A stretch of 64,000 bases of DNA from a virus (IMGVR_UViG_3300032293_000813:87000-150999); one strand, 5' to 3'; shown: positions 4,473 through 63,498, counted from the stretch's first letter. The notes: generated from the sequence alone by a model not told the origin. Numbers and translations are program-made.

Positions 4473-4880
4473 TTAACCAACTTTAATCGTAACCTTTTTT
4501 GGTTTTGCTTCTTCCTTCTTAGGAATAGTTAGGTAAAGAACACCATTTAGGATTTTAGCTGAAGTTTTTGCTCCATCAAATTTATCTCCTACCGCAATTC
4601 TATCATTAATAGTAGAGATAAGTTCTTTTTCAACCTTTGATAATTCTCTTTCTACTGATTTTACAAAAATTGCATCTTCTTCCAATTCGATAGTAATATC
4701 ATCTTTACTATGACCTAAAACTGATAGAGCAATTATTGCTTCCTCTTCTGTAACATCAATTGATAATCTTGAGTTTTGATATGTTACAGCTGGCACAGGT
4801 AAAGTGAAAAATGAATCATTTAGAAACGAATCAAGCACCTTATCAAGTGTTGTGTAATTTTTTTTGTTTGTGTTGTACAT
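4473..4880 (-). CDS. small heat-shock protein, Hsp20/alpha-crystallin family
   Basis: Alpha-crystallin domain signature (SIDVTEEE..., GVLYLTIPK) and ~135 aa size. Confidence 0.8.
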   Translation of the reverse strand: MYNTNKKNYTTLDKVLDSFLNDSFFTLPVPAVTYQNSRLSIDVTEEEAIIALSVLGHSKDDITIELEEDAIFVKSVERELSKVEKELISTINDRIAVGDKFDGAKTSAKILNGVLYLTIPKKEEAKPKKVTIKVG

Positions 4881-9786: not shown

Positions 9787-9812
9787 AACTCAAATATACG
9801 AAAAAAAACTGA

Positions 9813-10496
9813 TTAAACCAAATATTGTATATTATGTTTCATAGTTTCATACTGAACATTGAAAAGAAGTGCAAACCTATTAACATCCTCCTTCACCTCG
9901 CTGACCATATGAAACGGGTCTGATTCGCCACTAAAATTAAGGAATAATATATCAGCAAAGGTTGGAACTATTTCTTCATCTTCAACTACAAATAATCCCC
10001 CATATTCTTTCTTGTATTCTTTGTTCAAATATATCAATATATTAGCAGGTTTCCTGTGAGGGAATTCTTCATACCCATCTGGTTTACCATCTCTATGACC
10101 ATTTAATCCACCTCCTTTAATATAGAGTGTTAATAATGGCTTTCCTATAAATAATGTGTGTCTTTTTTGACATTCGTTTTTGAATAATTCAAATGATTTA
10201 TTCAATATCCAATTATGTAGTTTTGGGTAATCACTCCATTCTAATTCTCCACCATTTAAACACAGTTGACCTATTATGGAATCAGGCATAGATTCATATC
10301 TCTCCGCAATCATATTCATAAAAGATTTAGCTTTATCATGTGATTCATGCACCTCCATCATCCCGAACTCACCTGGACCTCTATGAATTGTTTTAGTGTA
10401 TTTTTGCAAATCAGTTGATATCTGATATATCTTATCTAATTCTTCTTTTAAATGATTTATATCATATAAGTTCTCTTTGTAGTATGCACCTTCCAT
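9813..10496 (-). CDS. putative 2OG-Fe(II) oxygenase-like protein
   Basis: NGHRDG (HxD) ... FHMVSEV ... NRFAL arrangement; weak. Confidence 0.35.
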   Translation of the reverse strand: MEGAYYKENLYDINHLKEELDKIYQISTDLQKYTKTIHRGPGEFGMMEVHESHDKAKSFMNMIAERYESMPDSIIGQLCLNGGELEWSDYPKLHNWILNKSFELFKNECQKRHTLFIGKPLLTLYIKGGGLNGHRDGKPDGYEEFPHRKPANILIYLNKEYKKEYGGLFVVEDEEIVPTFADILFLNFSGESDPFHMVSEVKEDVNRFALLFNVQYETMKHNIQYLV

Positions 10497-10552: not shown

Positions 10553-11515
10553 ATGAAAAAAACCTTCACTATAGATTTCGGTAAATTTGATGAGAATCGA
10601 TTAGTTTCCGAATATTCATTAGATTTCGAAGTACAAGAAAATCCCATAGCCGAATTGTGGTATGATATGTTAAATGGTTTATTGAAAGATGAAACATGGA
10701 AACTAGAAACCCGTTGGGGAGCATTTAAACTACCAACTCGTCATCCTAAGATATTAGTAGATAAACTAAAAAGATGTGTAGAAACGATTAACAACTCTGA
10801 TTGGTTTGAATATCATATTATCGAATCTGATATGATTACGGAAGATTATCCAATGGAGGTTCATAATATTATTCACCATCATTTCGAAACACTAATTGGA
10901 CAAGTGTGGAGGCCATCGGAATATTGGAATAGAATATGTGAAAGACAAGATTGGGCTCTTATAAATGCAGTTAGAGGATTGAATGACCTTTCACATGAAA
11001 TCGAAGAGTGGAATATGAGAGGAGATGCTACAATCTATACTACTTTTATGAATGGCGTTTCTCCAATACAAAAAGTAGAACTCCCAAAAGAAGCGGATGA
11101 ATGGTTTACATTGGATGGTGCATTTGGTAGAGGTTATTTACACTATGCACAATTAGGTAAGACGTGGCAAGAAGTGTGTATCGATGATGATGACCAAATA
11201 GAACCAGGTAATATTTCCGAACACCGTTTACTTAGTGGAGAGTTTGATTTACAATTCTCTTTATTTGATAGAACTCACGAAGGTATGATTGAATCTTTTG
11301 GTATGAGAGATAAACTCGCTAAATTTGAAAAAACACCTGAAGATAAAAGTCTGAGATTAGGATATTGTCCTGTATTTGATATAAAGGGACAGGATAAGTT
11401 TAGTACGTTAGATAAAGAAAATATAATTGATGGGGTTAGAAATCATCCCCAAATCATACGAATGAAAATAGAAAATACGGGTCGAGCATTTACTCCATAC
11501 TACGACCCATACTAA
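10553..11515 (+). CDS. hypothetical protein (only plus-strand gene in the first 56 kb)
   Basis: 320-aa ORF in the intergenic space between minus-strand genes. Confidence 0.5.
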   Translation: MKKTFTIDFGKFDENRLVSEYSLDFEVQENPIAELWYDMLNGLLKDETWKLETRWGAFKLPTRHPKILVDKLKRCVETINNSDWFEYHIIESDMITEDYPMEVHNIIHHHFETLIGQVWRPSEYWNRICERQDWALINAVRGLNDLSHEIEEWNMRGDATIYTTFMNGVSPIQKVELPKEADEWFTLDGAFGRGYLHYAQLGKTWQEVCIDDDDQIEPGNISEHRLLSGEFDLQFSLFDRTHEGMIESFGMRDKLAKFEKTPEDKSLRLGYCPVFDIKGQDKFSTLDKENIIDGVRNHPQIIRMKIENTGRAFTPYYDPY

Positions 11516-12179
11516 TTAACTTTTCCGCTAAAACTTTATTACCTTCTTCTGAAAGATGTAAATCTTCTTTTGAGTAAGTTAAGTTATTTTTCTTAGCCCA
11601 ATTAAGACAAGATAATTCATTCCCAAATCTAATAAAATTAATTTTGTTAAACATAGGAGTGGATTTGTACCAGGTATCAAAGTATATGAATATTATTTTA
11701 GAACCCATCTTTTCTACACTACTTTGAATATTATATAAAGAATAGAGTAATTTGTTATACTCATAATCATCATTATACATATACGTCTGATAATCTCTAA
11801 ATAATTGTATTTTCTTTTCGTAAAATTCAATAGATGAGTAATCATTCTTATCAAACATAATTTTAAAATTAGAAACAACTTCATTTCCTATATCAGGATT
11901 GATTAAATTCTGTAATGATATTAAGTTTCTAAATTTAGAATCATAATAAGAATATCTGGTTAAGAATGTAGGTTGAAATAAAATTAGTGAATTCTTTAAT
12001 TCATATTGGTGGTATCTCTTATTGAATTCATGTATAATAGATTCATTTGAATTACCAGGAATAGAATGATTCTGATACTGAACTCCATAATCGTTTGCTA
12101 CTAAATCAACAAATCCTTTGGTAAAATCCTGTCTCCAACAGGAAAAAGAACAACCAAAGGATATAATGCTATTTATCAT
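11490..12179 (-). CDS. SGNH/GDSL-hydrolase-like paralog 1 (GCS variant)
   Basis: N-terminal ISFGCSFSCW resembles SGNH block I and matches three other paralogs in the window. Confidence 0.4.
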   Translation of the reverse strand: MINSIISFGCSFSCWRQDFTKGFVDLVANDYGVQYQNHSIPGNSNESIIHEFNKRYHQYELKNSLILFQPTFLTRYSYYDSKFRNLISLQNLINPDIGNEVVSNFKIMFDKNDYSSIEFYEKKIQLFRDYQTYMYNDDYEYNKLLYSLYNIQSSVEKMGSKIIFIYFDTWYKSTPMFNKINFIRFGNELSCLNWAKKNNLTYSKEDLHLSEEGNKVLAEKLISMGRSME

Positions 12180-12188
12180 AATTAATAT

Positions 12189-12557
12189 TGGTGGAGGTGG
12201 AGGGAGTCGAACCCTCGTCCAAATACGGATTTAATAAACCTCATTCACAAGCTTAGTTAGTTTTTCTTAACTAACAAAATAGATAAAGATTTATACATTC
12301 GTTATCATTAATGTTCCAATTCGATTTCGGGTTCAATTGGTCTCCACCTGAGTTCACATTCTATTTTAAGTCCCACGATGTGTGCGGGAGGGATTAGGCT
12401 GCTATAGCGTAATCAGCACCAACGAATGCCATAGCATCTTCGAAGGTCATTGTAGATAATTCTACGTCGTTTATTGTTCGATAGGTATTTAAGGATTTCC
12501 ATCTAACCCTGCTTGCAACTTACCAACTCATCGTACCTGTCAAAACCAGGCACCCCC
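12189..12557 (-). ncRNA. ssrA: tmRNA (SsrA), one-piece, ~369 nt
   Basis: The 5' end GGGGGUGCCUGGUUUUGACAGG resembles E. coli GGGGCUGAUUCUGGAUUCGACGGG. The 3' end GGACGAGGGUUCGACUCCCUCCACCUCCACCA resembles E. coli GGACGCGGGUUCAACUCCCGCCAGCUCCACCA; the acceptor stem pairs GGGGGUG with CACCUCC. An internal tag frame ends ...GGU GCU GAU UAC GCU AUA GCA GCC UAA (GADYAIAA*). Confidence 0.8.
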
Positions 12558-12559
12558 AA

Positions 12560-14140
12560 TTATTTTTTGTAGAATATAAATATCGGTTCATATTTGTAGA
12601 ACTGACCACCTATCTTCATACTATTTTTAACACCACTTAAATCAACTCCCGTCATAGGAGACATCGTCATTCGGATTTTACCTTGATACTCCATACCTAA
12701 TTCGGTTAGTATATCAATTGAATCCTGTTCCAATGGATAGAAACTTTTTCCTATCTTAATATCAGCAATGTTCCATAATATATATCTATCATTTCTTAAA
12801 TACTCAAATGCAGTTACCAAAGTAGGTCGTAAAAATCCATCTCTCCAACTTTCGTAGTTACCAAATTTCTTAAATGATTGTGTTTCATCATCAGAATATC
12901 TTTCTCTATCAAAGTAAGGAGGAGAAGTAAATATAAAATCTAATTGACCTTTATACTTTTGGAATCCTTCTTCTTCACTAATAATCTCTGAACCTGTTCT
13001 ATAAATCTCATAGGTATTTTTATGCCCCCAAAATGGATTACATGCTCCAGGTATTTTAGAGTTAAAGAATTCTGCTAAGTATTCATATCTACTCTTACCA
13101 ATTTCAGGAATATAATTTTCTGTATTTGGGTCATTACCAATGTAGTGAATATTTCTATCATCAACCGATAATGCACCTAATATTCTACCTCCCCAACCAG
13201 AAGATGGGTCATAGATATTAATTTGTTTTTGTTCTTTAATGTGGTTTGTATATTTCTGATACAAATACTTTGCAGTTAGTGGTGGAAAGTTTACAGCTGC
13301 TTGTGTGCCCATTCCAATTCTAAATGCCGCAGTTGCCTCAGGAAAAATAGTTTGACCTAATGGATACCACTTTAATTGAATAGGTTGTTTTTCCAATTCA
13401 GTTAACGCATCAATATCTTCTCCCCAATTAGCAGTTTTAAGTGATGAAATATGTTTATACTGAATCACACCTGCTTTATATAATTCCTTCACCTCTTCCG
13501 CAGTAATTGGCAGAGATGGAATCCTACTATCAGTTTGTGCTAAACAGAAATCATGCCCATCCCATACATCACCATTCATCCATTTCTCAATCCATTCTTT
13601 ACCACTTGCCAAATGCGTATTGTGATGTTCTTTATTATCCTTCTCCAATGTTTTAGAGAAACGATACATAGCATCTTGTCGTGTCAATCTCCTCATTTGT
13701 TTTGCAAACTCAGGAAGAAATTCATCGTTACAAAATATATCGTAGATAGATGGTTTTGGTTTATCATAAGAAGAACCACCGATTCCCGTCTTATACATCG
13801 CGGGAAAGAATTGATTTACAGGTGTTGCGAATTTATTAAAATTAAAAATTACATCATTACCCTCATCATCTTTCTCCTCAAACTTTTCCACCTTATAGGT
13901 TTGTAGTTTAGAAAATTGGTCTATAATCTCAGCCTCCGAAGAACCGATACGTGGAGGTGCTCCTGTTTTGTTCCACTCATCTACTACGGTCTTACGGAAC
14001 ATAGCAACCCACTCTTCAAATTCGGTAAGTGTCATCTTAAGAACATCCTCATATTTTAAGTTAATATGGGGTTCGTTAAAATAATCACACTTTTCGTAAA
14101 AATATTTCTTATCTGACATTATATGTTTATTAGAAATCAA
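12560..14140 (-). CDS. DNA amino-methyltransferase (N6-adenine or N4-cytosine) with large N-terminal domain
   Basis: Motif I YDPSSGWGGR followed by motif IV IFTSPPYF. Confidence 0.7.
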   Translation of the reverse strand: MISNKHIMSDKKYFYEKCDYFNEPHINLKYEDVLKMTLTEFEEWVAMFRKTVVDEWNKTGAPPRIGSSEAEIIDQFSKLQTYKVEKFEEKDDEGNDVIFNFNKFATPVNQFFPAMYKTGIGGSSYDKPKPSIYDIFCNDEFLPEFAKQMRRLTRQDAMYRFSKTLEKDNKEHHNTHLASGKEWIEKWMNGDVWDGHDFCLAQTDSRIPSLPITAEEVKELYKAGVIQYKHISSLKTANWGEDIDALTELEKQPIQLKWYPLGQTIFPEATAAFRIGMGTQAAVNFPPLTAKYLYQKYTNHIKEQKQINIYDPSSGWGGRILGALSVDDRNIHYIGNDPNTENYIPEIGKSRYEYLAEFFNSKIPGACNPFWGHKNTYEIYRTGSEIISEEEGFQKYKGQLDFIFTSPPYFDRERYSDDETQSFKKFGNYESWRDGFLRPTLVTAFEYLRNDRYILWNIADIKIGKSFYPLEQDSIDILTELGMEYQGKIRMTMSPMTGVDLSGVKNSMKIGGQFYKYEPIFIFYKK

Positions 14141-14173
14141 AGATACGAAAAATAATCCACATATCCAAATAAA

Positions 14174-15202
14174 TTATTCTCTAATTGTATCCAACGTTAC
14201 ACAATGAGGCCCACCACTAAAGGTTCTAGCATGTCTCATACGGACGGGTATAGAATCTACCCCATACTTCTTTAATTCTTTCATAAGAGGTATCTGTCGT
14301 TCCTCTACTATCATCGTATTCTCATCATAAGAAAGAGTGTTCATTCCCAACCAGGGTGATGCTTCTGCCCAATGTTCTAAACAATTTGTTTCCACCATCT
14401 CAGGAGAGTATATAACCTCCCACGATTGAAAGATTTTAGGTAGGTTGGTATGATTTACCCTTTTAGGATTAACTAAGACCAGTCCCTCTCTAATGAGTAC
14501 AAAAGTGGTATCTATATGGATGAATGCATATACATCTTCTATAGGATGTACATTATACTTTTCTTTCATATTTTCATCCAACCATTTTTGAAGATATTCG
14601 GCTCCTGCTCTGTTGCCGGTATTAGATATTAGGAATAGAATATCGTTATTACACTTAAGAATATTAGCCGCATCAAATACAGGCTCATCATTTCTTAATG
14701 TAGGGCCTGGTAACAATCCCCTATCATATATCGAATCTAATAATTTTGGTTTAGGAAAATCTACCCAATGTGATTCATCGAATAGATGTTTAAATGCTCT
14801 CGTTTCATTTTGTCGTTGGCGGAGAGCCATAGGAGTAGCAATAACTTTATCTTCTATAACTAACATAGAATCTCTAGGGCAGTATCCGTAGTAACCATCT
14901 ACTTCCCAATTTTCAGTTGAATAGGTTTCACTCCAATCGATTAAAGCAGGCCTGTGAACTTTAACACCTAACCCTTCTAATGTTTTACTTAAATTGTTTA
15001 GGTCTTCCGTAGTTTCTTCAATCATCCAATTAGGATAAGTTCCATATGGTATCTTACGAAATTGGTCATCTGTGTAATTAGCGTAATCAATCGTATGTAA
15101 TGATTTATCTCTTATAGTAGGAATCTGAGCAAATTCAGGTCTTCCTACGATTATCTCTTTTAGTTTCCCCCACTCATTTCTTATATAAGGTTTAATCTTC
15201 AT
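14174..15202 (-). CDS. L-arginine:glycine amidinotransferase (AGAT/CyrA/SxtG family)
   Basis: Collinear with human AGAT: [20 protein letters not shown] vs [29 protein letters not shown]...CPRDSMLVI...[36 protein letters not shown]; C-terminal catalytic SGGPHCVT vs GGGFHCWT. Confidence 0.85.
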   Translation of the reverse strand: [342 protein letters not shown]

Positions 15203-15212
15203 AAAAATTTAT

Positions 15213-15782
15213 TTAATCTATAAACGCTGCATTTGCATCTCTATTAGAAAGAATAGGAGTTTGAGTAGGCCAATCTATTTTTAATTTCGGGTCATCCCAT
15301 CTAGCCGTCTTTTGTTTAGTGTCATCATTATATTCACCTTCATACGCCATTTTGTATGTGAAAAGAGAATCATCGGTTAGCACATAGTGACCATTAGCAA
15401 ACATCGGAGGACAGAGTATCTGTATTTGAGTTTGAGGAGACATAATAAATGTTTCAGATTTTAAATATGTTTCCGATTCAGGTCTCATATCAACTAACAC
15501 CGTATATAGTGAACCCAATGGACAACTTAATAGCTTCCACGTCTTATTATCGTAATGCAATCCTCTCAATACTCCTTTATAGGATTGTGAAAATCTATCA
15601 TGTTTAAACTCTAAATCAGTTGGTAATACCTTTGGGAAATAGTCCGTATGAAATGTAGTCCATATTGAGCCCCTAAATTCATGATAAACTGAATTGGATA
15701 TAATTTTTACATCCGTTAAAACTTTACCACTATTGACATGAAATTCATCCCAATTTTGATTTTTGTAAAATAACTTTTCCAT
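15213..15782 (-). CDS. RmlC-like cupin (dTDP-4-dehydrorhamnose 3,5-epimerase family)
   Basis: GVLRGLHYD, KLLSCPLGSLYTVLVDMRPESETY, FANGHYVL, RWDDPKLKIDWP and LSNRDANA align with RmlC motifs. Confidence 0.8.
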   Translation of the reverse strand: MEKLFYKNQNWDEFHVNSGKVLTDVKIISNSVYHEFRGSIWTTFHTDYFPKVLPTDLEFKHDRFSQSYKGVLRGLHYDNKTWKLLSCPLGSLYTVLVDMRPESETYLKSETFIMSPQTQIQILCPPMFANGHYVLTDDSLFTYKMAYEGEYNDDTKQKTARWDDPKLKIDWPTQTPILSNRDANAAFID

Positions 15783-16423
15783 TATATTAAATTTTGTTTG
15801 TTTTTATTAATTCTAATTTTCCTATATGGCGATAACACATATTCTTCATAGTGAACATCACTCATCTCCATACCTAAATATTTAAATAAATCTCTAATGT
15901 TAGATTTATCATGTTCTACAAATATATCTTCATAGTAGAATATAGGAAATTTTTTATCATATGATATCTTATGAAGAATTTCACTTGATTCCATATACCT
16001 ACTAAACATTGTTTTAATGTAAGATGGTTCTATTTTATCAACATCGTAAATCTTAGGAGTATGCCACCCAATACCTCTTTCCCTCATAGATGTTTCATTG
16101 ATAGCAAAACTTTCCGATTGAGCAAGTTTATCCTTCCTATCCAATATAATTATTTTATCAAAAAAAGTGTAACACCAATCGAGATATTCATATACATTCT
16201 TAAATGAATCAATCGGATAATCATCTATACCAATTAAAAATAAATTTTTAATTAATATGTTTTCTACATTTAAAATAGAATCTATTTTCTTTAGATATTG
16301 ATTGAATTCGTAATTGAATGGCTCTATAAGAGTTGTATGATTAGATAATTTTATATGAGAATCTATCAATTTAACCAATGAAGTAGAACCACTTCTAGGT
16401 GTAGCTAATATTAATATTCTCAT
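15782..16423 (-). CDS. Stf0-like sulfotransferase
   Basis: ILILATPRSGSTSLVKLIDSH matches the Stf0 5'-PSB PAPS-binding loop (ILASQRSGSTLLVESL). Confidence 0.65.
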   Translation of the reverse strand: MRILILATPRSGSTSLVKLIDSHIKLSNHTTLIEPFNYEFNQYLKKIDSILNVENILIKNLFLIGIDDYPIDSFKNVYEYLDWCYTFFDKIIILDRKDKLAQSESFAINETSMRERGIGWHTPKIYDVDKIEPSYIKTMFSRYMESSEILHKISYDKKFPIFYYEDIFVEHDKSNIRDLFKYLGMEMSDVHYEEYVLSPYRKIRINKNKQNLI

Positions 16424-16489
16424 AAAATATATTCGAATGTTATAACCATAGTAACAAATATAATAAAAATTTGTTACATTACCAAATGA

Positions 16490-20395: not shown

Positions 20396-21643
20396 CTATA
20401 TTAATTCTTTTATTGAAACTTTTTTATTTTTCTTAAAAATCATCTGATAGTTGTAAACAAAAAAAGTTAATTCAGTTTCCTCTACTTCTTTTAAATCAAA
20501 TATTTTTAATAATTCAGCATTCGTTTTTGGTATAATATTATTATTATCGTCTAATATTAATTTTAATTTTTCTGGTATTGGCATTTCATATGATGCTTTC
20601 CAAAACGGAGTATCAAATCTTTCAGCTAAATAGTGATATCTAACGAACATCATGTTTTGCTCATTGATACTAGAGCAGGTATCATTAAATCTATCTCTAA
20701 GTGATACATCAAACTTAGCACTTATTAATCTCTTTAGTTGCATTATAGTTGACATCAATGAGGTAGCTTCCAACGGTTCTATGAATCCATATGATAGCCC
20801 AATTGCAACACTATTACCTATCCAACTTCTTTTATGTGTACCTGGCTTAAAATCAAATACTTTTTGTATAGTAATTTCTTTACCTATGTAATCTTCCACT
20901 TCTTTCTTAGCTTCTTCAACCGTAATAAATTCTGAATTAAATGTATATCCACATCCCCATCTATGTTGCAATGGTATCTGCCACATCCAACCTGAATCCA
21001 TTGAAATCATATTAGTGTGGGTTACATCTCCTATTGCATATTGATTTTCTTGTGGTAAAAAATATGCCATAGCTCTATTCAATAAAAGATATTTAGAATA
21101 ATCAATCCATTCATCATTGTGAACCTTACCTATAATAACTCTAGCAAAACCACTGCAATCAAATACAAAATCTATACCCTTAATATCAATTCCTTCCTTA
21201 AGTGAAATGGAATGGATATCCTCACCTGTTTTATCTACCACATCGACCTCACCTTCAATCCACTTAACACCTCTTGATAATGATACTTCTTTTAAGTATT
21301 CCGCTACCATTCTTGCATCAAAATGATATGCGTAATTTTGTTTAAACGCATTTGGTTTCGGTCCTGTAAAAAGATGCGATGAACTTTTCCCATCACCTGT
21401 CCAATTTGATAGTGTTAACCCTAATTTACTTGTGCAACCTGTTCTTTTAAAAAAATCATTTTGGTTTATTTCCAATAAAGATAAAAACGCACCAAAGTTA
21501 GGAGTAGCTCCTTCTCCTGCTCCTAATATTCCTATCTTAGAACTTTCTATTAAAGTAACAGATGCATCTTTCCAAAATTTATTAACAGATAGGGCGGTTA
21601 GCCACCCCGCAGTTCCGCCTCCAATAACAATTACATTTTTCAT
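20396..21643 (-). CDS. flavin-dependent halogenase (tryptophan-halogenase family)
   Basis: N-terminal VIVIGGGTAGW FAD motif plus WMWQIP (WxWxIP) motif. Confidence 0.7.
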   Translation of the reverse strand: MKNVIVIGGGTAGWLTALSVNKFWKDASVTLIESSKIGILGAGEGATPNFGAFLSLLEINQNDFFKRTGCTSKLGLTLSNWTGDGKSSSHLFTGPKPNAFKQNYAYHFDARMVAEYLKEVSLSRGVKWIEGEVDVVDKTGEDIHSISLKEGIDIKGIDFVFDCSGFARVIIGKVHNDEWIDYSKYLLLNRAMAYFLPQENQYAIGDVTHTNMISMDSGWMWQIPLQHRWGCGYTFNSEFITVEEAKKEVEDYIGKEITIQKVFDFKPGTHKRSWIGNSVAIGLSYGFIEPLEATSLMSTIMQLKRLISAKFDVSLRDRFNDTCSSINEQNMMFVRYHYLAERFDTPFWKASYEMPIPEKLKLILDDNNNIIPKTNAELLKIFDLKEVEETELTFFVYNYQMIFKKNKKVSIKELI

Positions 21644-26664: not shown

Positions 26665-27516
26665 TTATTCGGTTTCTACAAAGGTATAAAAACTTTTTGA
26701 ATTTTCCAAATCTGGTTGTGTTTTACTTTCACCTAATCTTATTTCTTCTTCCAAATCATATCTTTCCAATAATCTCTTTACGATACCACTCCTTACGCAA
26801 TCCTCTTTTGAGAACTCTACTTGATATACACCCTCTACCCCCATAAAACGATTCCATATATCATAGAACCCACTCTTTTGATATGCAGGTACTCCATTAG
26901 CTCTAAATTTATCACATTGGGAAAGGTCTCCACATATTACCATCTTACTATCATCTGATATACGCGTTACGAGTGTTTTTAACTGAGCTGGAGAGGCGTT
27001 CTGCGACTCGTCCATAAAGATGTATGTATTGTTAAAGTTCATCCCTCTAAGGAAGTTTAAAACCTTAAATTCTAACTTACCCAACTCAATCAAACGAGTG
27101 GTTTCTTTTTCTCCTATAATTTTGTGAAGTATTCCTATTGAGGATTCGTTGTGATAAGCTATCTTCTCCATCAAATCACCAGGAAGGTGACCTAACTTAT
27201 CTTCGTTACCAACATCGACCGTTGGATTTATAATAACCATTTTATATATTCCGCTATTTCTTTGGTATAATAACTCTATACCTTTTTGTATTCCGATGAA
27301 TGTTTTACCTGCCCCTGCCAATGCATGAGCCATAACTATATTATTTTTGTGTGATTCGATTGCCTTATACAATCTCTTTTGGTTTCTTGTTTTAAATTCT
27401 ATTGGTGTTATTAATTTCGGTATCCCTCCTACTTTGTTTTCTACAATTTCTCCAATTGTGTTTGTAACTTCAGTTTCTCCAACTTTCTTTGTAATCCTTT
27501 TAGATACTTTACCCAT
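26665..27516 (-). CDS. phoH: PhoH-like ATPase
   Basis: Walker A GAGKTF; GHLPGDLMEKI; IFMDESQN; VICGDLSQCD. Confidence 0.85.
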   Translation of the reverse strand: MGKVSKRITKKVGETEVTNTIGEIVENKVGGIPKLITPIEFKTRNQKRLYKAIESHKNNIVMAHALAGAGKTFIGIQKGIELLYQRNSGIYKMVIINPTVDVGNEDKLGHLPGDLMEKIAYHNESSIGILHKIIGEKETTRLIELGKLEFKVLNFLRGMNFNNTYIFMDESQNASPAQLKTLVTRISDDSKMVICGDLSQCDKFRANGVPAYQKSGFYDIWNRFMGVEGVYQVEFSKEDCVRSGIVKRLLERYDLEEEIRLGESKTQPDLENSKSFYTFVETE

Positions 27517-31264: not shown

Positions 31265-31461
31265 AAATTGATGTTTAGGTTCTCCATAGATTTCTCTAAT
31301 TGGATAACATACGCTTCGAATTCAGGTGAGCGATAGTATTCCTCTATTGCTTCCTCTAGTTCTTTTACTTCACTTTCTAATACTTCTATATCTTTTTCCA
31401 TACCTATAAATATACAAATAAAAATAGTGGTGACATTTCTACCACCACTACAAATATACAA
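31261..31461 (-). CDS. hypothetical small protein
   Basis: ORF tiling. Confidence 0.3.
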   Translation of the reverse strand: MYICSGGRNVTTIFICIFIGMEKDIEVLESEVKELEEAIEEYYRSPEFEAYVIQLEKSMENLNINL

Positions 31462-31484
31462 ATAATATTTTACTTTTACAAATC

Positions 31485-37531: not shown

Positions 37532-38899
37532 TCACTCATTATTAGATATATAGAAAAATGTAGGATACTTAGGAGATACTATTTTTTGACGAATCCTCTC
37601 ACTGGATAAACCGAAATAATCTGCCGCTTCTTTGAGTGAGTAAAATTGTATTCCATTACATTCTATGATAGGTATTTCACATCGTATATCACAATCTTTT
37701 AAACTATTTTCATTTTCATCATAGCTTACATCGGTTACAGGTGTAGCTAATTTAATCCAATGAGAATATATTTGAGAATTAGAAGATATTCTATTTCGTA
37801 TCTCGGATTCATCCAACCCAACATATTTTGCAATATGAACCGCTGATTCAAACAGATACCCATCTATACTATATTTTAAAATTGGTTTAGTTTCCTTTCC
37901 TATTATTTGCCAATCTTTGTATTTTATTTTATGAGAAAGGCATCGTCTTTCTACTTCAGATGCTACTAACTCATTTGGATTAAGTGAGATTGCTACTTCT
38001 CTGAATGATTTGTATTGTTTCCCATCAACCACACATTTGTAAGTCCCATCCCATTCAATATCCTCTGTTGCTAAATCGGGGTTTCCTTTTACGAATACTA
38101 ATACGTTTTGGTGAACCGATGCTACCTTACGATTGCGATTGAAATATGTATCCACAACTCTTCCGGCTTGATGTTGTGCGTTAAACAAAATCATATCGTT
38201 ATAGAAATTTAACCCAGCTTTCTCGCACGCTTGTATAGTTTTGTTTACTAACCCTCTATACTTTCCTATTTTATAATCTCCGGTCTTTGATACCTCTCTT
38301 ACTTCGGATACAACTACTATAAAAAATCTATTGTTCTTTAACTTTTGTGCCGATTTATCTAATATACGAAAATAAGTTTCATCAAATTCACTATCATCCA
38401 TATTTGATAAATCTCTATCGGAATCCGAATATTTTTCTAAACTATAATAAGGTGGACAAGTAAATACCAAATCATACTCTCCAGTTATTTCCGTATTGAT
38501 TGTATCTAATACTTCATCACTATCACCCACCATCCAATTTGGTTTGGTTGATTGCTTTTGGTTTTCTTCTATTTGTAATTTGGAAAGGTCTATTCCATCG
38601 TATTGATATCCCATTTCAGTTGCCACAATACCCCTAACACTCCCACCAGCAAATGGGTCTAATATCATTCCACCTTTAGGTGTGAACCATTGATACATAT
38701 GCTCACAAAGGGTTGCATCGAATATTGAAACAGATATTTCATCAGTATCCCAAAATTTACTTTTTGATACAGTATCTTCTCTACCGAGCTCAGATGTAAT
38801 ATTGTAAGTTTTAATCCAATACCGTTTACGGTCTTGCCATTCTTTAGTTCTTGTATCTAATATGGAGAATGGTTTTATCATATAAATGTAAAGATACAA
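37532..38899 (-). CDS. DNA amino-methyltransferase with C-terminal NUMOD1-like DNA-binding repeats
   Basis: Motif I DPFAGGSVRG then motif IV VFTCPPYY. Two C-terminal repeats I(D/N)G..F.S...A.Y.GL.ES.IR..I. Confidence 0.7.
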   Translation of the reverse strand: MYLYIYMIKPFSILDTRTKEWQDRKRYWIKTYNITSELGREDTVSKSKFWDTDEISVSIFDATLCEHMYQWFTPKGGMILDPFAGGSVRGIVATEMGYQYDGIDLSKLQIEENQKQSTKPNWMVGDSDEVLDTINTEITGEYDLVFTCPPYYSLEKYSDSDRDLSNMDDSEFDETYFRILDKSAQKLKNNRFFIVVVSEVREVSKTGDYKIGKYRGLVNKTIQACEKAGLNFYNDMILFNAQHQAGRVVDTYFNRNRKVASVHQNVLVFVKGNPDLATEDIEWDGTYKCVVDGKQYKSFREVAISLNPNELVASEVERRCLSHKIKYKDWQIIGKETKPILKYSIDGYLFESAVHIAKYVGLDESEIRNRISSNSQIYSHWIKLATPVTDVSYDENENSLKDCDIRCEIPIIECNGIQFYSLKEAADYFGLSSERIRQKIVSPKYPTFFYISNNE

Positions 38900-49909: not shown

Positions 49910-50218
49910 CTACTTAAGAGTTAACATATCTCCAATCGTTTGTGCTATGTGGGATGGGCCTTTTTTCAACTCCCAAACACCCAATAACCTTCTAATTGGT
50001 ATTCCACCTCCTAAGTCATCACTCCAAAACCATAATTCATAAAGGGCAGTATCACCTTCACCGATTGGAGTTCGTTCTATATTAACCTGAATAGTTTTCC
50101 TTCTATTATATTTGTACAATTGTATTAGGTAAGTGGTATTCAATGTTTCCACTTTACCAACTCTCCATTCACCCGCATCCATTTTGTAAAGTTTGGATAT
50201 GTTCTCTATGGTTAACAT
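49910..50218 (-). CDS. tandem small-paralog family member 1 (MLTIENI...)
   Basis: Shared N-terminal M(L/I)TIKNY-type motif with downstream neighbours. Confidence 0.45.
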   Translation of the reverse strand: MLTIENISKLYKMDAGEWRVGKVETLNTTYLIQLYKYNRRKTIQVNIERTPIGEGDTALYELWFWSDDLGGGIPIRRLLGVWELKKGPSHIAQTIGDMLTLK

Positions 50219-50511
50219 TAGTATATTAGATTTTCAATGGCGGAACAAAATGAATCCATATCGGAAATTTGTGCTTTGTTTAATAGAACGTATGAAGAAC
50301 CGTATTCCAATTTATACATCCCTACTTTGACACGATTAGGATAACGGTGCAACTTTACATCTCTTTTATGAGAACCCAACATATCATTTATAAAGATACG
50401 ATAGACGGCACGGTCGGTAACCATATTGGCGATAATGAAATCCAAACCGATTGTACGGCCGGAAAGCTTATCCATATTTTCTATTGTTAATAATCCATGC
50501 GTTCTATTCAT
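50218..50511 (-). CDS. tandem small-paralog family member 2 (..LLTIENM..)
   Basis: Motif at residues 7-13; ATGA start/stop overlap with member 1. Confidence 0.4.
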   Translation of the reverse strand: MNRTHGLLTIENMDKLSGRTIGLDFIIANMVTDRAVYRIFINDMLGSHKRDVKLHRYPNRVKVGMYKLEYGSSYVLLNKAQISDMDSFCSAIENLIY

Positions 50512-50578
50512 ATATTCAGTTTTCTTTTATTATACTCCCACCGGTCCTAAAACCCGTCCACTAAGATTTTTTGATACA

Positions 50579-50911
50579 TTAAACATCCCATACCTGTCTC
50601 CCATAGATACACACTAACTCACCAAATATCCTCATCTCGTCCATTTCGGAAAACAAAATCTGCAAAGGTTGATGACCTCCATGTGGATTATGAACGGGCT
50701 CTAACCTATACCACCGCCCATCTATACTATCGGTATGAGTTTCCTTCCACAACATAAGAGCAAGAAAATCCTTTGTCTCACCACTCTCCTTCAACTCCAT
50801 CATAAAGTGGTAATATGCTCCCCTCTCCGTTACATCGTTGATAATAATATAGTATCCACCACTTTGTAGCCCAAACCCAACAAGCTTTTTATAGTTTTGA
50901 ATCCTTAACAT
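50579..50911 (-). CDS. tandem small-paralog family member 3 (MLRIQNY)
   Basis: N-terminal motif. Confidence 0.4.
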   Translation of the reverse strand: MLRIQNYKKLVGFGLQSGGYYIIINDVTERGAYYHFMMELKESGETKDFLALMLWKETHTDSIDGRWYRLEPVHNPHGGHQPLQILFSEMDEMRIFGELVCIYGRQVWDV

Positions 50912-51231
50912 TACGCTATACTATCTTTATGATTCTCCAATGTACTCTCAACTAATTCGTAAAGAAGAACGGAATGGAGGATATCCTTTGGTTGTAACAT
51001 ATAAATACACCTCCAACTCGCACCCACTTGGAACACTTCACATTTATACACCTTACCCACTAACCCATCCGATAATATCCTCTCTATTCGGCAAGTTACG
51101 GGTTGCTTATCTCCAATACGTTGCTCAAAGACGAATACATAATAATCCGCCCCTTCGAACGCCTTTGCCAAATCCCATCCGTATATAACGCCGGAAGTGA
51201 GGTCTTTATCATATCGTTTGATTGTTAACAT
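50911..51231 (-). CDS. tandem small-paralog family member 4 (MLTIKRY)
   Basis: N-terminal motif. Confidence 0.45.
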   Translation of the reverse strand: MLTIKRYDKDLTSGVIYGWDLAKAFEGADYYVFVFEQRIGDKQPVTCRIERILSDGLVGKVYKCEVFQVGASWRCIYMLQPKDILHSVLLYELVESTLENHKDSIA

Positions 51232-51593
51232 ACACGGTCTAATTGGCGGATAAGTGAATAAATGAATACGTTAGGCGAAACGAAATCATTGTAATGGAAA
51301 TAAAAAGAGTTCTCCTTCATAGACGGACCATAAAGATTCATCCTATAGTGGTCGTGGTCGTTATACATAGGTAGAGTATGTAGATAAGAAGAATACTCTG
51401 TTCCCCCATAGTTAAACCCTATACGATACTGAGGTTCTGATACACTATCCTCTAAGTAAGTATCTACCCATAGGAACTCAATCGTATTACTATATGGATG
51501 TGCACGGACACCTAAGTCGTGTATCCCCATTAGTTTATCCTTTATATTCTTTATCTGTAGTACCTTACCACTCTGTATATACTTAATACTCAT
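51225..51593 (-). CDS. hypothetical protein in paralog array (MSIKYIQSG...IKNIKDK)
   Basis: Weak motif similarity. Confidence 0.35.
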   Translation of the reverse strand: MSIKYIQSGKVLQIKNIKDKLMGIHDLGVRAHPYSNTIEFLWVDTYLEDSVSEPQYRIGFNYGGTEYSSYLHTLPMYNDHDHYRMNLYGPSMKENSFYFHYNDFVSPNVFIYSLIRQLDRVC

Positions 51594-51605
51594 AACATTG
51601 TTGAT

Positions 51606-51938
51606 TTACCCGCAACTATTTTCTAATACCTTTAACATCTCTCTTTCTATAAACCACTTATCCTTAATCTCATCCTTAGTAAGATGGCTATGAGAGAACC
51701 CACCACCCTCGCCAGGAGATTTTAATTGTTGCGATTGTATTCGGTAGAGTATCGGTTCTTCGCTCCGCCTATCTCTACTTATGGCAACATCGAACATAGG
51801 ATAGTTCCACCCACTTATACTCTCAAATCGGAATGTGTACCAATCTTCTAACTCCTCCGTATGTTTGCATTGATATAACTTCCCCTTAATAGAGAAAACA
51901 AAATCAATCCAAATGTTATGGTTCTTAATCGTTATCAT
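51606..51938 (-). CDS. tandem small-paralog family member (MITIKNH)
   Basis: N-terminal motif. Confidence 0.45.
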   Translation of the reverse strand: MITIKNHNIWIDFVFSIKGKLYQCKHTEELEDWYTFRFESISGWNYPMFDVAISRDRRSEEPILYRIQSQQLKSPGEGGGFSHSHLTKDEIKDKWFIEREMLKVLENSCG

Positions 51939-52255
51939 TATCTATAAGGTTTATATGATTCCATTATCTTAACACACTTTTCTATCCACTCCCAATGATA
52001 CTCTAATACCAAACGATTAACTACTCCACTCCATAGAGGTTGTGTACCTGGTGTAGTAGTGAACATCATCATAGGTAGTTCCCCTTTAGCGTTCTCAAAC
52101 TTCCTACCTAAAAAGATTTGGTATTGATGTCTTCCCTTCGAACCTATATCCGTCCAAAGGAAAACGTAATTATCCCCAATCTCCATAACGGAATCCAATT
52201 GCCATCCTAAGAAATGAGCACCCTCTCCTAATTTATAGTTCTTAATTGTTATCAT
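51938..52255 (-). CDS. tandem small-paralog family member (MITIKNY)
   Basis: N-terminal motif. Confidence 0.45.
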   Translation of the reverse strand: MITIKNYKLGEGAHFLGWQLDSVMEIGDNYVFLWTDIGSKGRHQYQIFLGRKFENAKGELPMMMFTTTPGTQPLWSGVVNRLVLEYHWEWIEKCVKIMESYKPYR

Positions 52256-52256
52256 A

Positions 52257-52556
52257 CTAAAATGGATTATCTCTTAATACACCTTCTAATTGCCCTACCA
52301 TATTGTCTTTATCCGCAATCCAATTAGCAGTTACCGATACCTTTATATCTCTACCATTCAATAGAATATCATAGATGGGAGACCCTTCGTAATCCTTAAA
52401 TGATTCCCTTCTCAACCCAATAAGGCAAGTAAATCCCCCTTCGTTTATTATTTGTATATCGTAGAACCTATCATACTCACTCACCTGTTGAATATGGTAT
52501 CTTCCTCCTAAGAACTCCGTTTGTAATAACTTTTGGTATCCTTTAATTGTTAGCAT
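52257..52556 (-). CDS. tandem small-paralog family member (MLTIKGY; ORF extends to 52586 but the internal Met restores the family N-terminus)
   Basis: Internal start at residue 11 gives MLTIKGYQKL. Confidence 0.4.
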   Translation of the reverse strand: MLTIKGYQKLLQTEFLGGRYHIQQVSEYDRFYDIQIINEGGFTCLIGLRRESFKDYEGSPIYDILLNGRDIKVSVTANWIADKDNMVGQLEGVLRDNPF

Positions 52557-52818
52557 CGGTATAAGTTTCGTTATAGTATGCCTCAATATCTTCCCTACCT
52601 ACATTATGTGTACATCCAAATGCAAAATCTATTGTCTGATTCTTCTCCATCTCTAAGTAGTTCCTCTTAAACATCTCCCAATGAATTGAATCGGTTTGTA
52701 AATCCTTCATCAACTCTATTCGTTGGAGGGCTAGTGTAAGTGCTGTTTTCATATTATAAATTAAATTTTTTAAATCTCCAATCTCCTGCCTCCCCATCAA
52801 AACCACCTCTATCCGCAA
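52543..52818 (-). CDS. hypothetical small protein (overlaps both neighbours; real start probably internal)
   Basis: ORF overlaps its neighbours by 14-65 nt. Confidence 0.25.
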   Translation of the reverse strand: MRIEVVLMGRQEIGDLKNLIYNMKTALTLALQRIELMKDLQTDSIHWEMFKRNYLEMEKNQTIDFAFGCTHNVGREDIEAYYNETYTDANN

Positions 52819-53122
52819 TATCTAATATGTTCTCTAAGAATTGGGTAAAGTTATCCAATGAAATCATATCTTGCGTAGTTACTCCCATAGGATATGATTT
52901 TTGCTTAGTCCAATCGTATATCCATAGTTGATATCGGTAATTAAGTCCTTTACTCCTAATCTCTATAGCCTCTCTTACGATATCCATTCGGTATTGGTTC
53001 TTAGATGTATTCAATTTTATCACATATAGTTCGGTTAAGGTATCCATACCATCAATTCTAAATCTATCTGATACCACTTTGGTAGCCATTGAATAAAATC
53101 CTTTTATATCTAATCGTTTCAT
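52754..53122 (-). CDS. hypothetical protein in paralog array (MKRLDIKGFY)
   Basis: Weak motif similarity. Confidence 0.35.
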   Translation of the reverse strand: MKRLDIKGFYSMATKVVSDRFRIDGMDTLTELYVIKLNTSKNQYRMDIVREAIEIRSKGLNYRYQLWIYDWTKQKSYPMGVTTQDMISLDNFTQFLENILDIADRGGFDGEAGDWRFKKFNL

Positions 53123-53127
53123 ATAGT

Positions 53128-53445
53128 TTATCGTTTATCTTTGAAGTATCTTTTAATTACTGAGTATAATTGGTATCGGAACTCTTCAGCTCCTCTTTTT
53201 AAGTTACTATAACTGAGGGTATGTTGTACATATACTCCATCTACTTTAATCTGCAATGAACCATTCTGATTAGGTTCTTTAATTAAGTGAACCTTTATAA
53301 CCTCACCCCAACCTCCAATTACATATTCGAATTCGTAAGCCCCTTCCCAATTAATAGATGTTACACAATGTGCCAATACTGAACCATCGGATTTAACTAT
53401 ATCTCCTTTTATCTTATCGTGTCCGTTTATGTTGATATACTTCAT
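53128..53445 (-). CDS. hypothetical protein in paralog array (MKYININGHD)
   Basis: Weak motif similarity. Confidence 0.35.
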   Translation of the reverse strand: MKYININGHDKIKGDIVKSDGSVLAHCVTSINWEGAYEFEYVIGGWGEVIKVHLIKEPNQNGSLQIKVDGVYVQHTLSYSNLKRGAEEFRYQLYSVIKRYFKDKR

Positions 53446-54200: not shown

Positions 54201-54641
54201 TTATTTGTTATTAATGAATGCTTTACAGCTATGGAACTTAGTGTTCATAGCCTTCCATATATTCCAATCAATCATCTTAGGGAAAGCCCCATGCATATCA
54301 CCTACTGTCAAACTCTCTAATAGGTTCTTCTCTATACTATGCCATTTACCACCCTTAGTAGTTAGAATGTGAAACCAATAAGATTTTCCTCCAATCATTC
54401 TCTCCATCTCTACTACAGTGGTGTTCTTACTTAGGTAGTATGGCAAGTTCTCTATTGTACACTCTACATCACCAATGACGGGGAAGCCGGCTCTTGCCTT
54501 AGCAGTATATCTGAATCGGTACTCTGTTCCCAACTCTGTTAGATTACTTACTCCCACTCGGTTACCATTAATGTTGATAGTACCATAGAATACATTTCCA
54601 CCCATTGAATCTGTGTTAATTTTAATTAAAGGATTGTTCAT
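54201..54641 (-). CDS. hypothetical protein (N-terminus ..LIKINTD..)
   Basis: ORF tiling. Confidence 0.4.
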   Translation of the reverse strand: MNNPLIKINTDSMGGNVFYGTININGNRVGVSNLTELGTEYRFRYTAKARAGFPVIGDVECTIENLPYYLSKNTTVVEMERMIGGKSYWFHILTTKGGKWHSIEKNLLESLTVGDMHGAFPKMIDWNIWKAMNTKFHSCKAFINNK

Positions 54642-56232: not shown

Positions 56233-56532
56233 ATGCTTGGATATATCGATACTAAGCCCTATCTTTACTATATAAACGATAAACATATGAATAGAACCGA
56301 CAGTAAGTTAATAGAACTAAACGAAGTAGTGGGTACGGAAGTATCAGAAAACTTCTCTCCTACCCTCAGAGCTAAACTGATTCACGTAGATGAGTATCAC
56401 GGAACTTGTCTTATGGAGGTAGTTCCCTCTCCCTATGTATCTATGGTGCAAGGTGGTTCACTAAATAATGATAGAGTTGGTGAAAGGTATCACGCTCCTG
56501 TCTATCGTATTCACAATGCTTATTTCTTTTAA
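56233..56532 (+). CDS. hypothetical protein (first gene of plus-strand mini-operon)
   Basis: ORF; strand switch. Confidence 0.45.
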   Translation: MLGYIDTKPYLYYINDKHMNRTDSKLIELNEVVGTEVSENFSPTLRAKLIHVDEYHGTCLMEVVPSPYVSMVQGGSLNNDRVGERYHAPVYRIHNAYFF

Positions 56533-56544
56533 ACCAAATAAAAA

Positions 56545-56775
56545 ATGAAAAAATACAGAAACTACAAAGTTGAATCAGCTCCCTCTCCCACATTCCCATC
56601 TATGGTCTCAGTTACCCTTAAGAGTGGTGGTATTAAAAAATTCGTAACACCTGAAAAGGCTGAGTTGTGGATTGAAGAACAAATCGCTCTGAAGGCAATC
56701 AATGGTGGTGCTAAACAGGCCAAAGCAGACCTAATGGATATGGGGTTATTACCATTTGAATTTAAAACCGCATAG
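56545..56775 (+). CDS. hypothetical small protein
   Basis: ORF, 12 nt after the previous one. Confidence 0.45.
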   Translation: MKKYRNYKVESAPSPTFPSMVSVTLKSGGIKKFVTPEKAELWIEEQIALKAINGGAKQAKADLMDMGLLPFEFKTA

Positions 56776-56778
56776 AGT

Positions 56779-57108
56779 ATGGACGGAAACAAAAAAGAAT
56801 TTATAGAACTTTCAGAAGCAGAATTATTCCAACTGCCTGAAGCCGAGTTCTTTGCTTACTTAGATGCCAAAGCCGCTCACTTAAAACAATTCACCGTCCC
56901 ATTAGGGGAGTATCACACTAAACAATTCCTCTCTCAGACAGTTGGTGATAAGTTAACTACCAAAGAATTAAAACGGGCTAAAGAGATTGGTAAGGTAGGT
57001 GATATAGAACGCTCTGATAACATTCGTAAGGCAGTAGAGAAATTAGACCTTAAGCCTGTAGACCTCGGAGTTAAAGTTAAAAAGCGTGGTGGTGGTTGGG
57101 TAGATTAG
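56779..57108 (+). CDS. hypothetical protein
   Basis: ORF, 3 nt after the previous one. Confidence 0.45.
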   Translation: MDGNKKEFIELSEAELFQLPEAEFFAYLDAKAAHLKQFTVPLGEYHTKQFLSQTVGDKLTTKELKRAKEIGKVGDIERSDNIRKAVEKLDLKPVDLGVKVKKRGGGWVD

Positions 57109-58255: not shown

Positions 58256-58600
58256 TTATATCCATCCCCTTTCGGTTAGTACGTTCATAAACCTGTCCAA
58301 CAGCTCTGCGGGGTTTTCTAATGTTTGAGACCCTATCCACACCTTACCATTCTCACTCTTATCACCCTCATTATTGCTTACCTCTACTATCACACACTCT
58401 TCATCATCAATCTCTCTATGTACTATAACTGCTCCTAAACTCCCTATCCGTATGGCATAGAAACTCTCTCCCTCCATTGTATCCGCTCTATCTACCCCTA
58501 CTCCTATCTTATCCCAATTCGCTATGGTTAATCTCCTACTGCTACCAATAGAGCCGCTAGGGTTATTAGTACCCATAGTGCTAAGTTTCGTTTTTCCCAT
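58256..58600 (-). CDS. hypothetical protein
   Basis: ORF. Confidence 0.4.
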   Translation of the reverse strand: MGKTKLSTMGTNNPSGSIGSSRRLTIANWDKIGVGVDRADTMEGESFYAIRIGSLGAVIVHREIDDEECVIVEVSNNEGDKSENGKVWIGSQTLENPAELLDRFMNVLTERGWI

Positions 58601-60580: not shown

Positions 60581-60581
60581 A

Positions 60582-60833: not shown

Positions 60834-60835
60834 AA

Positions 60836-61111: not shown

Positions 61112-61119
61112 ATTATGTT

Positions 61120-61557: not shown

Positions 61558-61573
61558 ATTATTGTTTTTTATT

Positions 61574-62210: not shown

Positions 62211-62213
62211 ATT

Positions 62214-63469: not shown

Positions 63470-63498
63470 ATATACGAAAATATACCCACATTTCCAAA

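Follow-up and report, generated by a model that had tools for sequence, protein, structure and literature searches.

The 64,000-nt stretch of viral DNA IMGVR_UViG_3300032293_000813:87000-150999 (hereafter the window) encodes a complete transfer-messenger RNA (tmRNA; ssrA) of the one-piece type, 369 nt long with its 3' CCA encoded, at positions 12189-12557 on the minus strand. Covariation among its relatives and purifying selection on a long tag show, at the level of sequence comparison, that the phage uses its copy as a genuine tmRNA rather than carrying it as a remnant. We consider it likely that the gene is a functional phage-resident tmRNA that carries out ordinary trans-translation with host factors; the identity, structure and conservation of the gene, the selection on its peptide and its residence in a phage are backed by the data presented here.

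Results

ARAGORN found a single RNA gene in the window, a tmRNA at 12189-12557 (-) whose tag reads DVELSTMTFEDAMAFVGADYAIAA before the stop codon, and an Rfam search with cmscan placed family RF00023 at the same coordinates over the full length of the model (positions 1-374 of 374; 105.1 bits against a gathering score of 47; E = 4.8e-40). The tmRNA was the only Rfam family to reach the gathering threshold across the 64 kb, and no glutamine riboswitch reached it there. An initial annotation of this DNA had proposed a complete tmRNA in the interval from its tRNA-like ends and from a tag ending GADYAIAA-UAA. Both features are present in the sequence, and the agreement of ARAGORN with a covariance-model score more than twice the gathering threshold confirms the gene and adds its strand. 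Since ARAGORN assigned it the standard type and the RF00023 alignment ran from 1 to 374, the gene is colinear and in one piece; the two-piece (permuted) class was rejected on these two grounds together with the lack of a riboswitch in the window.

Nearly all open reading frames (ORFs) of the window lie on one strand, and its GC content is about 32%. Searches against Pfam and PHROGs identified PhoH, Hsp20, several 2OG-Fe(II) oxygenases, a tryptophan halogenase, endonuclease V, UvdE and a methyltransferase fused to an I-TevI DNA-binding domain. Numerous PHROG families without an assigned function were also recognised, and no cellular housekeeping gene was found among the ORFs. The best matches of the tryptophan halogenase are in Pelagibacter phage HTVC008M and T4-like cyanophages, the best phage match of an amidinotransferase is in the jumbo Synechococcus phage S-SCSM2R, and that of UvdE is in a 642-kb uncultured phage from the work of Al-Shayeb et al. 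2020. No structural hallmark gene was found in the 64 kb, so the assignment to a phage rests on this gene content and on relatives in IMG/VR, where tmRNAs of this family accompany tRNA arrays; on that basis the earlier description of the tmRNA as phage-encoded and set among phage-like genes holds.

The tmRNA belongs to a family of viral alleles. The 519-aa ORF that precedes it has 22 relatives in IMG/VR at 74-98% identity, most of them with a tmRNA immediately downstream, and a degenerate pattern for the tag core DAMAFVGAD matched 59 viral contigs in IMG/VR (up to 288 kb) and at least 120 metagenome contigs; among the metagenome matches listed, all have 27-40% GC and all are 188 kb or shorter. 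On many of the viral contigs with the tag core, the tmRNA lies within or beside an array of 15-25 tRNAs. ARAGORN found no tRNA in the window, but the window's allele type adjoins a tRNA array in L031 and L032 (contigs of 229-237 kb), so the position of the gene varies. Identity of the alleles to the window copy ranges from 96% down to about 39%. Across loci L001-L089 the alleles are mosaic, with the type of tRNA-like domain, the type of pseudoknot 1 (PK1), the N-terminus of the tag, PK2 and PK3-4 forming modules that occur in incompatible combinations, which points to recombination inside the gene among phage alleles. Tag N-terminus and PK2 gave five four-combination incompatibilities, whereas none was seen between the two halves (5' and 3') of the tRNA-like domain, which have to pair with each other and always travel together.

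Neither the tmRNA region (blastn, word size 11) nor 24 kb of the window (megablast) had a match among 50,697 phage records, and it appears from these records that no cultured relative carries this tmRNA. The exact proteins of the window were found only in metagenome assemblies, where their contigs reach 164 kb; members of their clusters also occur on a contig of 293 kb. An aquatic origin is suggested because of contig names (TARA, GOS (AACY) and 'marine metagenome') and the relatives of the auxiliary genes. The carrier would be an uncultivated, low-GC, presumably aquatic jumbo phage.

The secondary structure of a one-piece tmRNA can be traced through the window copy. All elements lie on the minus strand, and a window coordinate equals 12558 minus the RNA position. 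The acceptor stem pairs RNA 1-7 (GGGGGUG; 12551-12557) with RNA 359-365 (CACCUCC; 12193-12199) at 7 of 7 positions, among them G3:U70, the alanine identity element of tmRNA, and is followed by the ACCA tail (RNA 366-369), so that 3' strand and tail together occupy 12189-12199. The T-arm (RNA 342-358; 12200-12216) reads GAGGG-UUCGACU-CCCUC, and its stem (342-346/354-358) is paired at 5 of 5 positions; helices 2a (RNA 19-26/331-338) and 2d (RNA 41-47/306-312) are likewise fully paired, at 8 of 8 and 7 of 7 positions. Directly after helix 2d comes PK1 (RNA 48-78; 12480-12510), formed by stem 1 (48-51/63-66, 4 of 4) and stem 2 (55-59/74-78, 5 of 5). In the 3' half of the molecule, three pseudoknots can be drawn by inspection. 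Direct pairing would give PK2 (RNA 170-203; 12355-12388) from CCCGC/GUGGG (170-174/182-186) and CACAU/AUGUG (176-180/199-203), and PK3 (RNA 210-242; 12316-12348) from the hairpin CCAAUU/AAUUGG (218-223/237-242), whose loop ACC can form a weak 3-bp stem with the upstream GGU (210-212). PK4 (RNA 244-276; 12282-12314) would consist of ACAUU/AAUGU (244-248/259-263) and GAUAA/UUAUC (252-256/272-276). A terminal hairpin, GUUAG/CUAAC (RNA 283-302, stem 283-287/298-302; 12256-12275), stands just before the 3' strand of helix 2. The resume codon, GAC, is at nt 90.

Relatives keep these stems while changing their sequence. Across subtypes MAFFT places PK1 and helix 2d wrongly, and it fails to align PK2-PK4; pair counts were limited to the tRNA-like domain, helix 2a and the hairpin at the end of the tag, and PK1 was followed with an anchor-based pseudoknot finder. 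In the resulting alignment of 39 alleles, 93.5% of the cells of 23 pairs (acceptor stem, T-arm, helix 2a and tag-end hairpin) were paired, a value that fell to 41-56% when the 3' partners were slid by 1-3 columns as a control. Both sides had changed in 16 of the 23 pairs, and none of 500 shuffles reached the observed covariation. Acceptor stem and T-arm were paired in every allele, with changes on both sides at three of seven and four of five pairs, respectively. The wobble pair G3:U70 was invariant (39/39), and G1-C, G2-C, G3:U and G4-C showed no variation at all.

An equivalent of PK1 was present in all 24 distinct PK1 regions, in every subtype, after a helix 2d paired at 7 of 7 positions. 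Stem 1 took at least nine sequences (AGGG.., CGGG.., AGGGA, AGGAA, AGUGG, AGGCA, AGACA, AGUGAG, AGAGG and AGAGUU) and stem 2 at least seven; the individual z-scores are modest (1.3-4.3), and the case for PK1 lies in these compensated variants. Similar replacements occur further downstream, namely UUCAU/AUGAA in PK2 of L006 and L016, a swap of the whole PK3 stem to GUGAUU/AAUCAC, and GUUUG/CAAAC and GUCAG/CUGAC in the terminal hairpin. The 3' CCA is encoded in 18 of the 39 alleles; in the remainder the discriminator base is followed by CTA, CAA and the like, and these must rely on a CCA-adding enzyme for maturation. Taken across the alleles, the pattern of change indicates that the RNA is selected as a working tmRNA.

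The tag reading frame (12394-12468, minus strand) runs from the resume codon GAC (12466-12468) through the 24 codons of the tag to the stop codon UAA (12394-12396). The resume codon is preceded by AACAAUAAAC, with U at -5 and A at -4, which we take to be the positions U85 and A86 of Escherichia coli tmRNA. Throughout the family the resume codon begins with G and follows the context AAUAAAC/U, and the tags are 24-26 aa long. The frame is intact in all alleles and has no AUG start, and the tags end in A-[V/I/L]-A-A.

Selection on the peptide is apparent in how the frame has diverged. Forty alleles with 24-codon tags comprise 28 distinct coding sequences but only 16 peptides, and the sites that vary are 5 at the first, 8 at the second and 21 at the third codon position. 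The ratio of nonsynonymous to synonymous substitution (dN/dS, NG86) was 0.24 for the whole tag, 0.28 in alleles found through the flanking gene only, 0.45 over the 15 codons outside the search pattern and 0.03 over codons 11-19, the last figure being partly ascertained. Four residues outside the pattern (E3, S5, T8 and F/W9) are nearly invariant. Codon periodicity and the low dN/dS argue that the tag is translated and that its sequence matters. One covarying hairpin, helix 3, overlaps the last tag codons (39 alleles).

The initial annotation had read the AIAA end of the tag as a departure from ALAA that might alter recognition by ClpXP or SspB. This reading did not survive comparison with the family, where the residue at -3 toggles among I, V and L. 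Over the 28 distinct coding sequences it is V in 23, I in four and L in one, and AVAA dominates among the metagenome matches listed. Judging by these alleles, AIAA is a minor, conservative allele, and the difference is neutral aliphatic variation. The phage tags end in GADYA[VLI]AA or, in one subtype, GADEYALAA, and the native SsrA tag of Bacteroides, GETNYALAA, is a strong degron (bioRxiv 10.1101/2025.03.18.644028). The phage tag looks like a host-type degron with a conserved stretch of about 16 residues in front of it that only this phage clade has.

The gene is tightly packed between two ORFs on the same strand. The 519-aa ORF (12560-14119, ATG at 14119), whose C-terminus has a weak methyltransferase-like PHROG match, ends with its stop codon 2 nt before the tmRNA 5' end, and a 229-aa ORF without an assigned function (11490-12179) begins with an ATG 9 nt after the CCA. 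A Bacteroidota-type promoter-like site, TTTG-N20-TATCTTTG (14138-14169, minus strand; consensus from PMC6847099), lies 18 nt upstream of the ATG of the 519-aa ORF and is a candidate promoter for the unit formed by the two ORFs and the tmRNA. The most economical reading is that all three would be made as one transcript, from which the tmRNA would be excised by tRNA-processing enzymes. Sites resembling sigma-70 promoters were not enriched around the gene (9, against 15.6 in shuffles), and one weak site of this kind just upstream of the tmRNA (12600-12573, minus strand) is not relied on.

In many relatives (L029, L036, L042, L047, L068, L073, L088 and others) the tmRNA is a stand-alone transcription unit. 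The 75 nt upstream of these genes contain a conserved TTTGGAA-N~20-TATATTTG motif and a conserved leader, GTTCTTTAA(A/C)ATAT, that abuts the mature 5' end, and the 45 nt scanned downstream contain a strong hairpin-T terminator. Promoter motif, leader and terminator have all been lost in the window lineage, whose gene is wedged between the two ORFs. In L001-L003 the upstream ORF is separated from the tmRNA by an additional 227 bp.

Promoter and translation signals also bear on the host. TTTG and TANNTTTG form the -33/-7 consensus of the primary sigma factor of Bacteroidota (PMC6847099, PMC9723704). The combined motif TTTG-N17-21-TANNTTTG occurs 10 times in the window against 2.7 +/- 1.6 expected, a count that none of 100 shuffles reached. 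Eight of the 10 are on the coding strand, most of them just upstream of ORFs; minus-strand sites are at 14138-14169, 9791-9822, 63467-63498, 16455-16486, 26679-26710, 2922-2953 and 31451-31482. The -7 box alone (TAHHTTTG) shows no strand bias in this AT-rich window (33 vs 44), the enrichment being confined to the combined motif. A Shine-Dalgarno-like 4-mer precedes 4 of 78 ORFs, compared with a background of 18%, and A is enriched at -3 of the ORF starts (48/78); few Shine-Dalgarno sites and an A at -3 are described traits of translation initiation in Bacteroidota (PMC6847099). Bacteroidota-type promoters combined with missing Shine-Dalgarno sites point to this phylum, and we lean towards one of its members as the host.

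Discussion

A question raised by this gene is how a phage would make use of a tmRNA. If, as we think likely, it performs ordinary trans-translation, the RNA would be charged, would depend on the SmpB of the host and would commit the products that it tags to proteolysis, to the benefit of the phage. The transcript spanning the two ORFs and the tmRNA would be made and the tmRNA cut out of it by host tRNA-processing enzymes. Host alanyl-tRNA synthetase (AlaRS) may then charge the RNA by way of the invariant G3:U70 pair, and the charged tmRNA, with host SmpB and EF-Tu, would be accepted by ribosomes that stall, in the course of infection, on mRNAs that are broken or lack a stop codon. Decoding would restart at the GAC codon of nt 90, adding alanine and the 24-residue acidic-hydrophobic tag ending YA[I/V/L]AA, a putative host-type degron that would direct the product to ClpXP-like proteases. 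Ribosomes would thereby be freed and amino acids recycled, and ribosomes would stay available while mRNAs are destroyed or cleaved in the infected cell. The tmRNA would be part of a translation-maintenance toolkit, given the near-complete tRNA arrays around or beside it in relatives.

Several points weigh against this scheme. The benefit to the phage is something that we infer, and the phage is uncultivated, its gene being known here from sequence alone. SmpB was not found in the window by Pfam, nor in 1.73 Mb of family DNA around the tmRNAs, and phmmer with an E. coli SmpB sequence gave nothing better than E = 2.6, in a search of limited sensitivity; these negatives cover DNA near the tmRNAs rather than complete genomes, and a phage SmpB could be encoded elsewhere. 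No promoter or terminator of its own was found for the window copy in a scan for sigma-70 promoters and terminators. PK2-PK4 were drawn by inspection, and Rfam posterior probabilities are low in that region. Finally, most members of the family were collected with a pattern that fixes DAMAFVGAD, and how strongly these nine residues are conserved is therefore in part a product of ascertainment; alleles reached by way of the flanking gene show the same conservation.

Two other explanations for the presence of the gene fare poorly. That ARAGORN and Rfam were misled, or that the gene is a decaying pseudogene, might be suspected from the low posterior probabilities over PK2-PK4 and from L029 and L030, whose tmRNAs ARAGORN did not detect and Rfam did (78.7 bits with RF00023). 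For the window copy, however, the two independent callers concur, at a score more than twice the gathering threshold, and among the alleles covariation is strong and the coding frame is unbroken in every one examined; the calls, the frame and the covariation have already refuted this explanation, to which we give a negligible chance. Genes for tmRNA are also common integration sites, and fragments of them occur in prophages (PMC9004378), so the gene could be a piece of host ssrA acquired through imprecise prophage excision or as an attP/attB core. The initial annotation had argued against a host attB remnant in the absence of an integrase, and the data uphold it. Pfam detected no integrase or recombinase family among the 84 ORFs of the window, no second copy of the tmRNA 3' end was present in the window with up to 3 mismatches allowed, and repeats around the gene amount to short, low-identity AT-rich matches, none of them att-like. 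The gene is complete rather than a 3' fragment, it is packed between phage ORFs with gaps of 2 nt and 9 nt, and its alleles on viral contigs have diverged far from one another, some to 39-55% identity, with stems kept by compensating changes. A comparison with cellular ssrA genes across 185,579 species genomes, pattern-based and able to detect only tmRNAs that encode DAMAFVGAD, returned four matches, all in coding DNA of about 70% GC without a tmRNA. Since these are chance coding matches, no host ssrA was identified, and the tag core is in no cellular tmRNA of that set. An origin as a host remnant is effectively refuted and, in our view, extremely unlikely.

Other alternatives accept the gene as a phage gene and differ in what it would do. 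One possibility is that the RNA is a decoy, titrating host SmpB, EF-Tu or AlaRS to stop trans-translation in the host while delivering no tag. An inhibitory tmRNA-like gene reduced to the tRNA-like domain has been proposed in mycobacteriophage DS6A (PMC4131195), no other structural part of the phage tmRNA is as well conserved as the tRNA-like domain, and the lack of a detected phage SmpB would fit as well. A decoy would nonetheless have no need of the full length, PK1, the resume-codon context and the intact frame that are found in every allele, and codon periodicity together with low dN/dS shows that the tag is translated, which makes this role very unlikely. Another possibility, compatible with ordinary trans-translation and an elaboration of it, is customised tagging that goes beyond generic ribosome rescue. 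Here the conserved N-terminal part of about 16 residues (xxELSxxTFEDAMAFV) would give the phage a specific handle, such as one bound by an adaptor of phage or host origin, and could time or select degradation or mark the products of cleaved host mRNAs. The length of the tag (24-26 aa, compared with 9 aa in Bacteroides), the N-terminal and central residues kept through many synonymous changes, the core found in no cellular tmRNA by the pattern search, and the ClpS, cyclophilin and Hsp20 proteostasis genes of the window would all agree with this. On the other hand, no candidate adaptor was identified, ClpS recognises N-degrons and not C-terminal tags and is encoded 49 kb off, some bacteria have long tags with no known special role, and constraint at the RNA level, such as the hairpin over the last codons, could explain part of the conservation. 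Such a customised function strikes us as improbable. The related proposal, that the phage re-engineered the tag by retaining a Bacteroidota-like degron and adding an acidic-hydrophobic extension as a recognition handle, which would recruit an adaptor or protease or give the products a distinct fate, we also hold to be rather unlikely; were a handle to be real, the modular recombination among alleles could reflect an ongoing arms race over ribosome rescue.

The gene can be compared with several known systems. Like the one-piece SsrA of bacteria such as E. coli and Bacteroides, the phage RNA has an acceptor stem with G3:U70, a T-arm, helix 2, PK1, a G-initial resume codon at nt 90 and a tag ORF, followed by a region in which PK2-PK4 can be drawn, and the C-terminus of its tag fits the form G-x-x-(x)-Y-A-[LVI]-A-A of the Bacteroides tag. 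It differs in being phage-encoded, in a tag of 24-26 rather than 9-11 aa with an extension present in no cellular genome searched, in a resume codon for Asp (GAC) in the window and for Ala or Gly in relatives, and in having no smpB nearby.

Among phages, the initial annotation had described tmRNAs as known but rare, which agrees with a survey in which 402 of 18,146 phage genomes had one, or 2.3% of cultured phage genomes (PMC9004378). They are documented in Bxz1-group mycobacteriophages and Bacillus phage G (PMC4131195, PMC12484599), and huge phages carry tmRNAs, some with SmpB as well (PMC7162821), for which translation maintenance or interception has been offered as the interpretation (PMC7162821). 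The family described here shares with the tmRNAs of huge and jumbo phages a one-piece form, large tRNA sets and genomes above 200 kb (PMC7162821, PMC12484599, PMC4131195), but it has no DNA similarity to tmRNAs in the 50,697 phage records, and no SmpB was found in the DNA searched. The tag of phage G, AKLNITNNELQVA, lacks the canonical A-[LVI]-A-A end, which the window tag keeps. Mycobacteriophages of cluster C1 (Bxz1, Catera, Rizal and others) are lytic myoviruses with about 30 tRNAs and one one-piece tmRNA (PMC4131195, PMC9583779); the one-piece tmRNA carried along with tRNAs is a likeness, whereas the probable host phylum is unrelated, base composition and tag differ, and there is no sequence similarity. 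Aquatic myophages (OM43 phage Melnitz, pelagimyophages and some cyanophages) resemble the present phage in its presumed habitat, T4-like auxiliary genes, lytic appearance and lack of an integrase, yet their tmRNAs are circularly permuted, two-piece and sometimes accompanied by a glutamine riboswitch (PMC9004378), unlike the colinear one-piece gene of the window, which has no riboswitch in its 64 kb. In the same survey nearly every aquatic phage tmRNA was of the two-piece type, and marine examples made up only 2.5% of the one-piece phage tmRNAs (PMC9004378).

The gene is a well-supported new, uncultivated and apparently abundant example among already documented phage tmRNAs. It is distinguished by its one-piece form in aquatic phages, by a long conserved tag that ends in a canonical degron and by alleles that evolve as mosaics, all of which leave its category unchanged. 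Phage tmRNAs sit in annotation tables, and to our knowledge none has a demonstrated function. The family is an unusually good comparative data set, comprising over 100 alleles from the environment that covary strongly and whose long tag is clearly under purifying selection, and an abundant aquatic one-piece clade fills a gap in a picture that assigned nearly all tmRNAs of aquatic phages to the two-piece type. A probable host in Bacteroidota and a tag end that resembles the tested degron GETNYALAA make direct experiments feasible in Flavobacterium or Bacteroides. Such work could address why large lytic phages invest in ribosome rescue, for instance to withstand mRNA or tRNA cleavage during host takeover or host defence.

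Neighbouring genes and other features of the window

The initial annotation had also drawn attention to a ClpS homolog. The gene is present (61574-61843, minus strand; PF02617, E = 2.5e-15), but the suggested tie to the tmRNA tag is not borne out, the two genes being 49 kb apart. ClpS is the N-degron adaptor for ClpAP. A functional module of tmRNA and ClpS was rejected on this distance and on the lack of any co-location. The ClpS cluster has 137 members at 90% identity, on contigs of up to 173 kb, and its conservation across the clade is unusual in itself for a phage-encoded ClpS. It adjoins the other genes of a proteostasis and repair cluster (60221-63107, minus strand), which are a 4HBT thioesterase (60221-60580), a cyclophilin-type prolyl isomerase (61120-61557) and the UV-damage endonuclease UvdE (62214-63107); Hsp20 is encoded at 4473-4880.

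Convincing plus-strand genes occur only at 10553-11515 and 56233-57108 in the otherwise minus-strand window, which shows local reversals of GC skew at 10-12 kb and 54-58 kb. The former of the two genes converges on the 229-aa ORF, where the tmRNA transcription unit probably ends. Immediately upstream of the tmRNA operon, 14174-16423 (minus strand) encodes a cluster for sugar or metabolite modification, made up of an amidinotransferase, a dTDP-4-dehydrorhamnose 3,5-epimerase and a sulfotransferase-like ORF, and the 1-37 kb part of the window also holds an APS kinase and the tryptophan halogenase (20396-21643). A 455-aa ORF at 37532-38899 (minus strand) encodes both an N6/N4 DNA methylase and a DNA-binding domain of the I-TevI type and has phrog_12517 and phrog_498 in common with the C-terminal part of the 519-aa ORF (12560-14119, minus strand). 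The minus-strand segments 49910-53445, 54201-54641 and 58256-58600 hold about 10 small ORFs of 97-122 aa arranged in tandem, very diverged paralogs of about 20% identity that have no Pfam match and share the N-terminal motif M-L/I-T-I-K/E-N-x-D-K-L.

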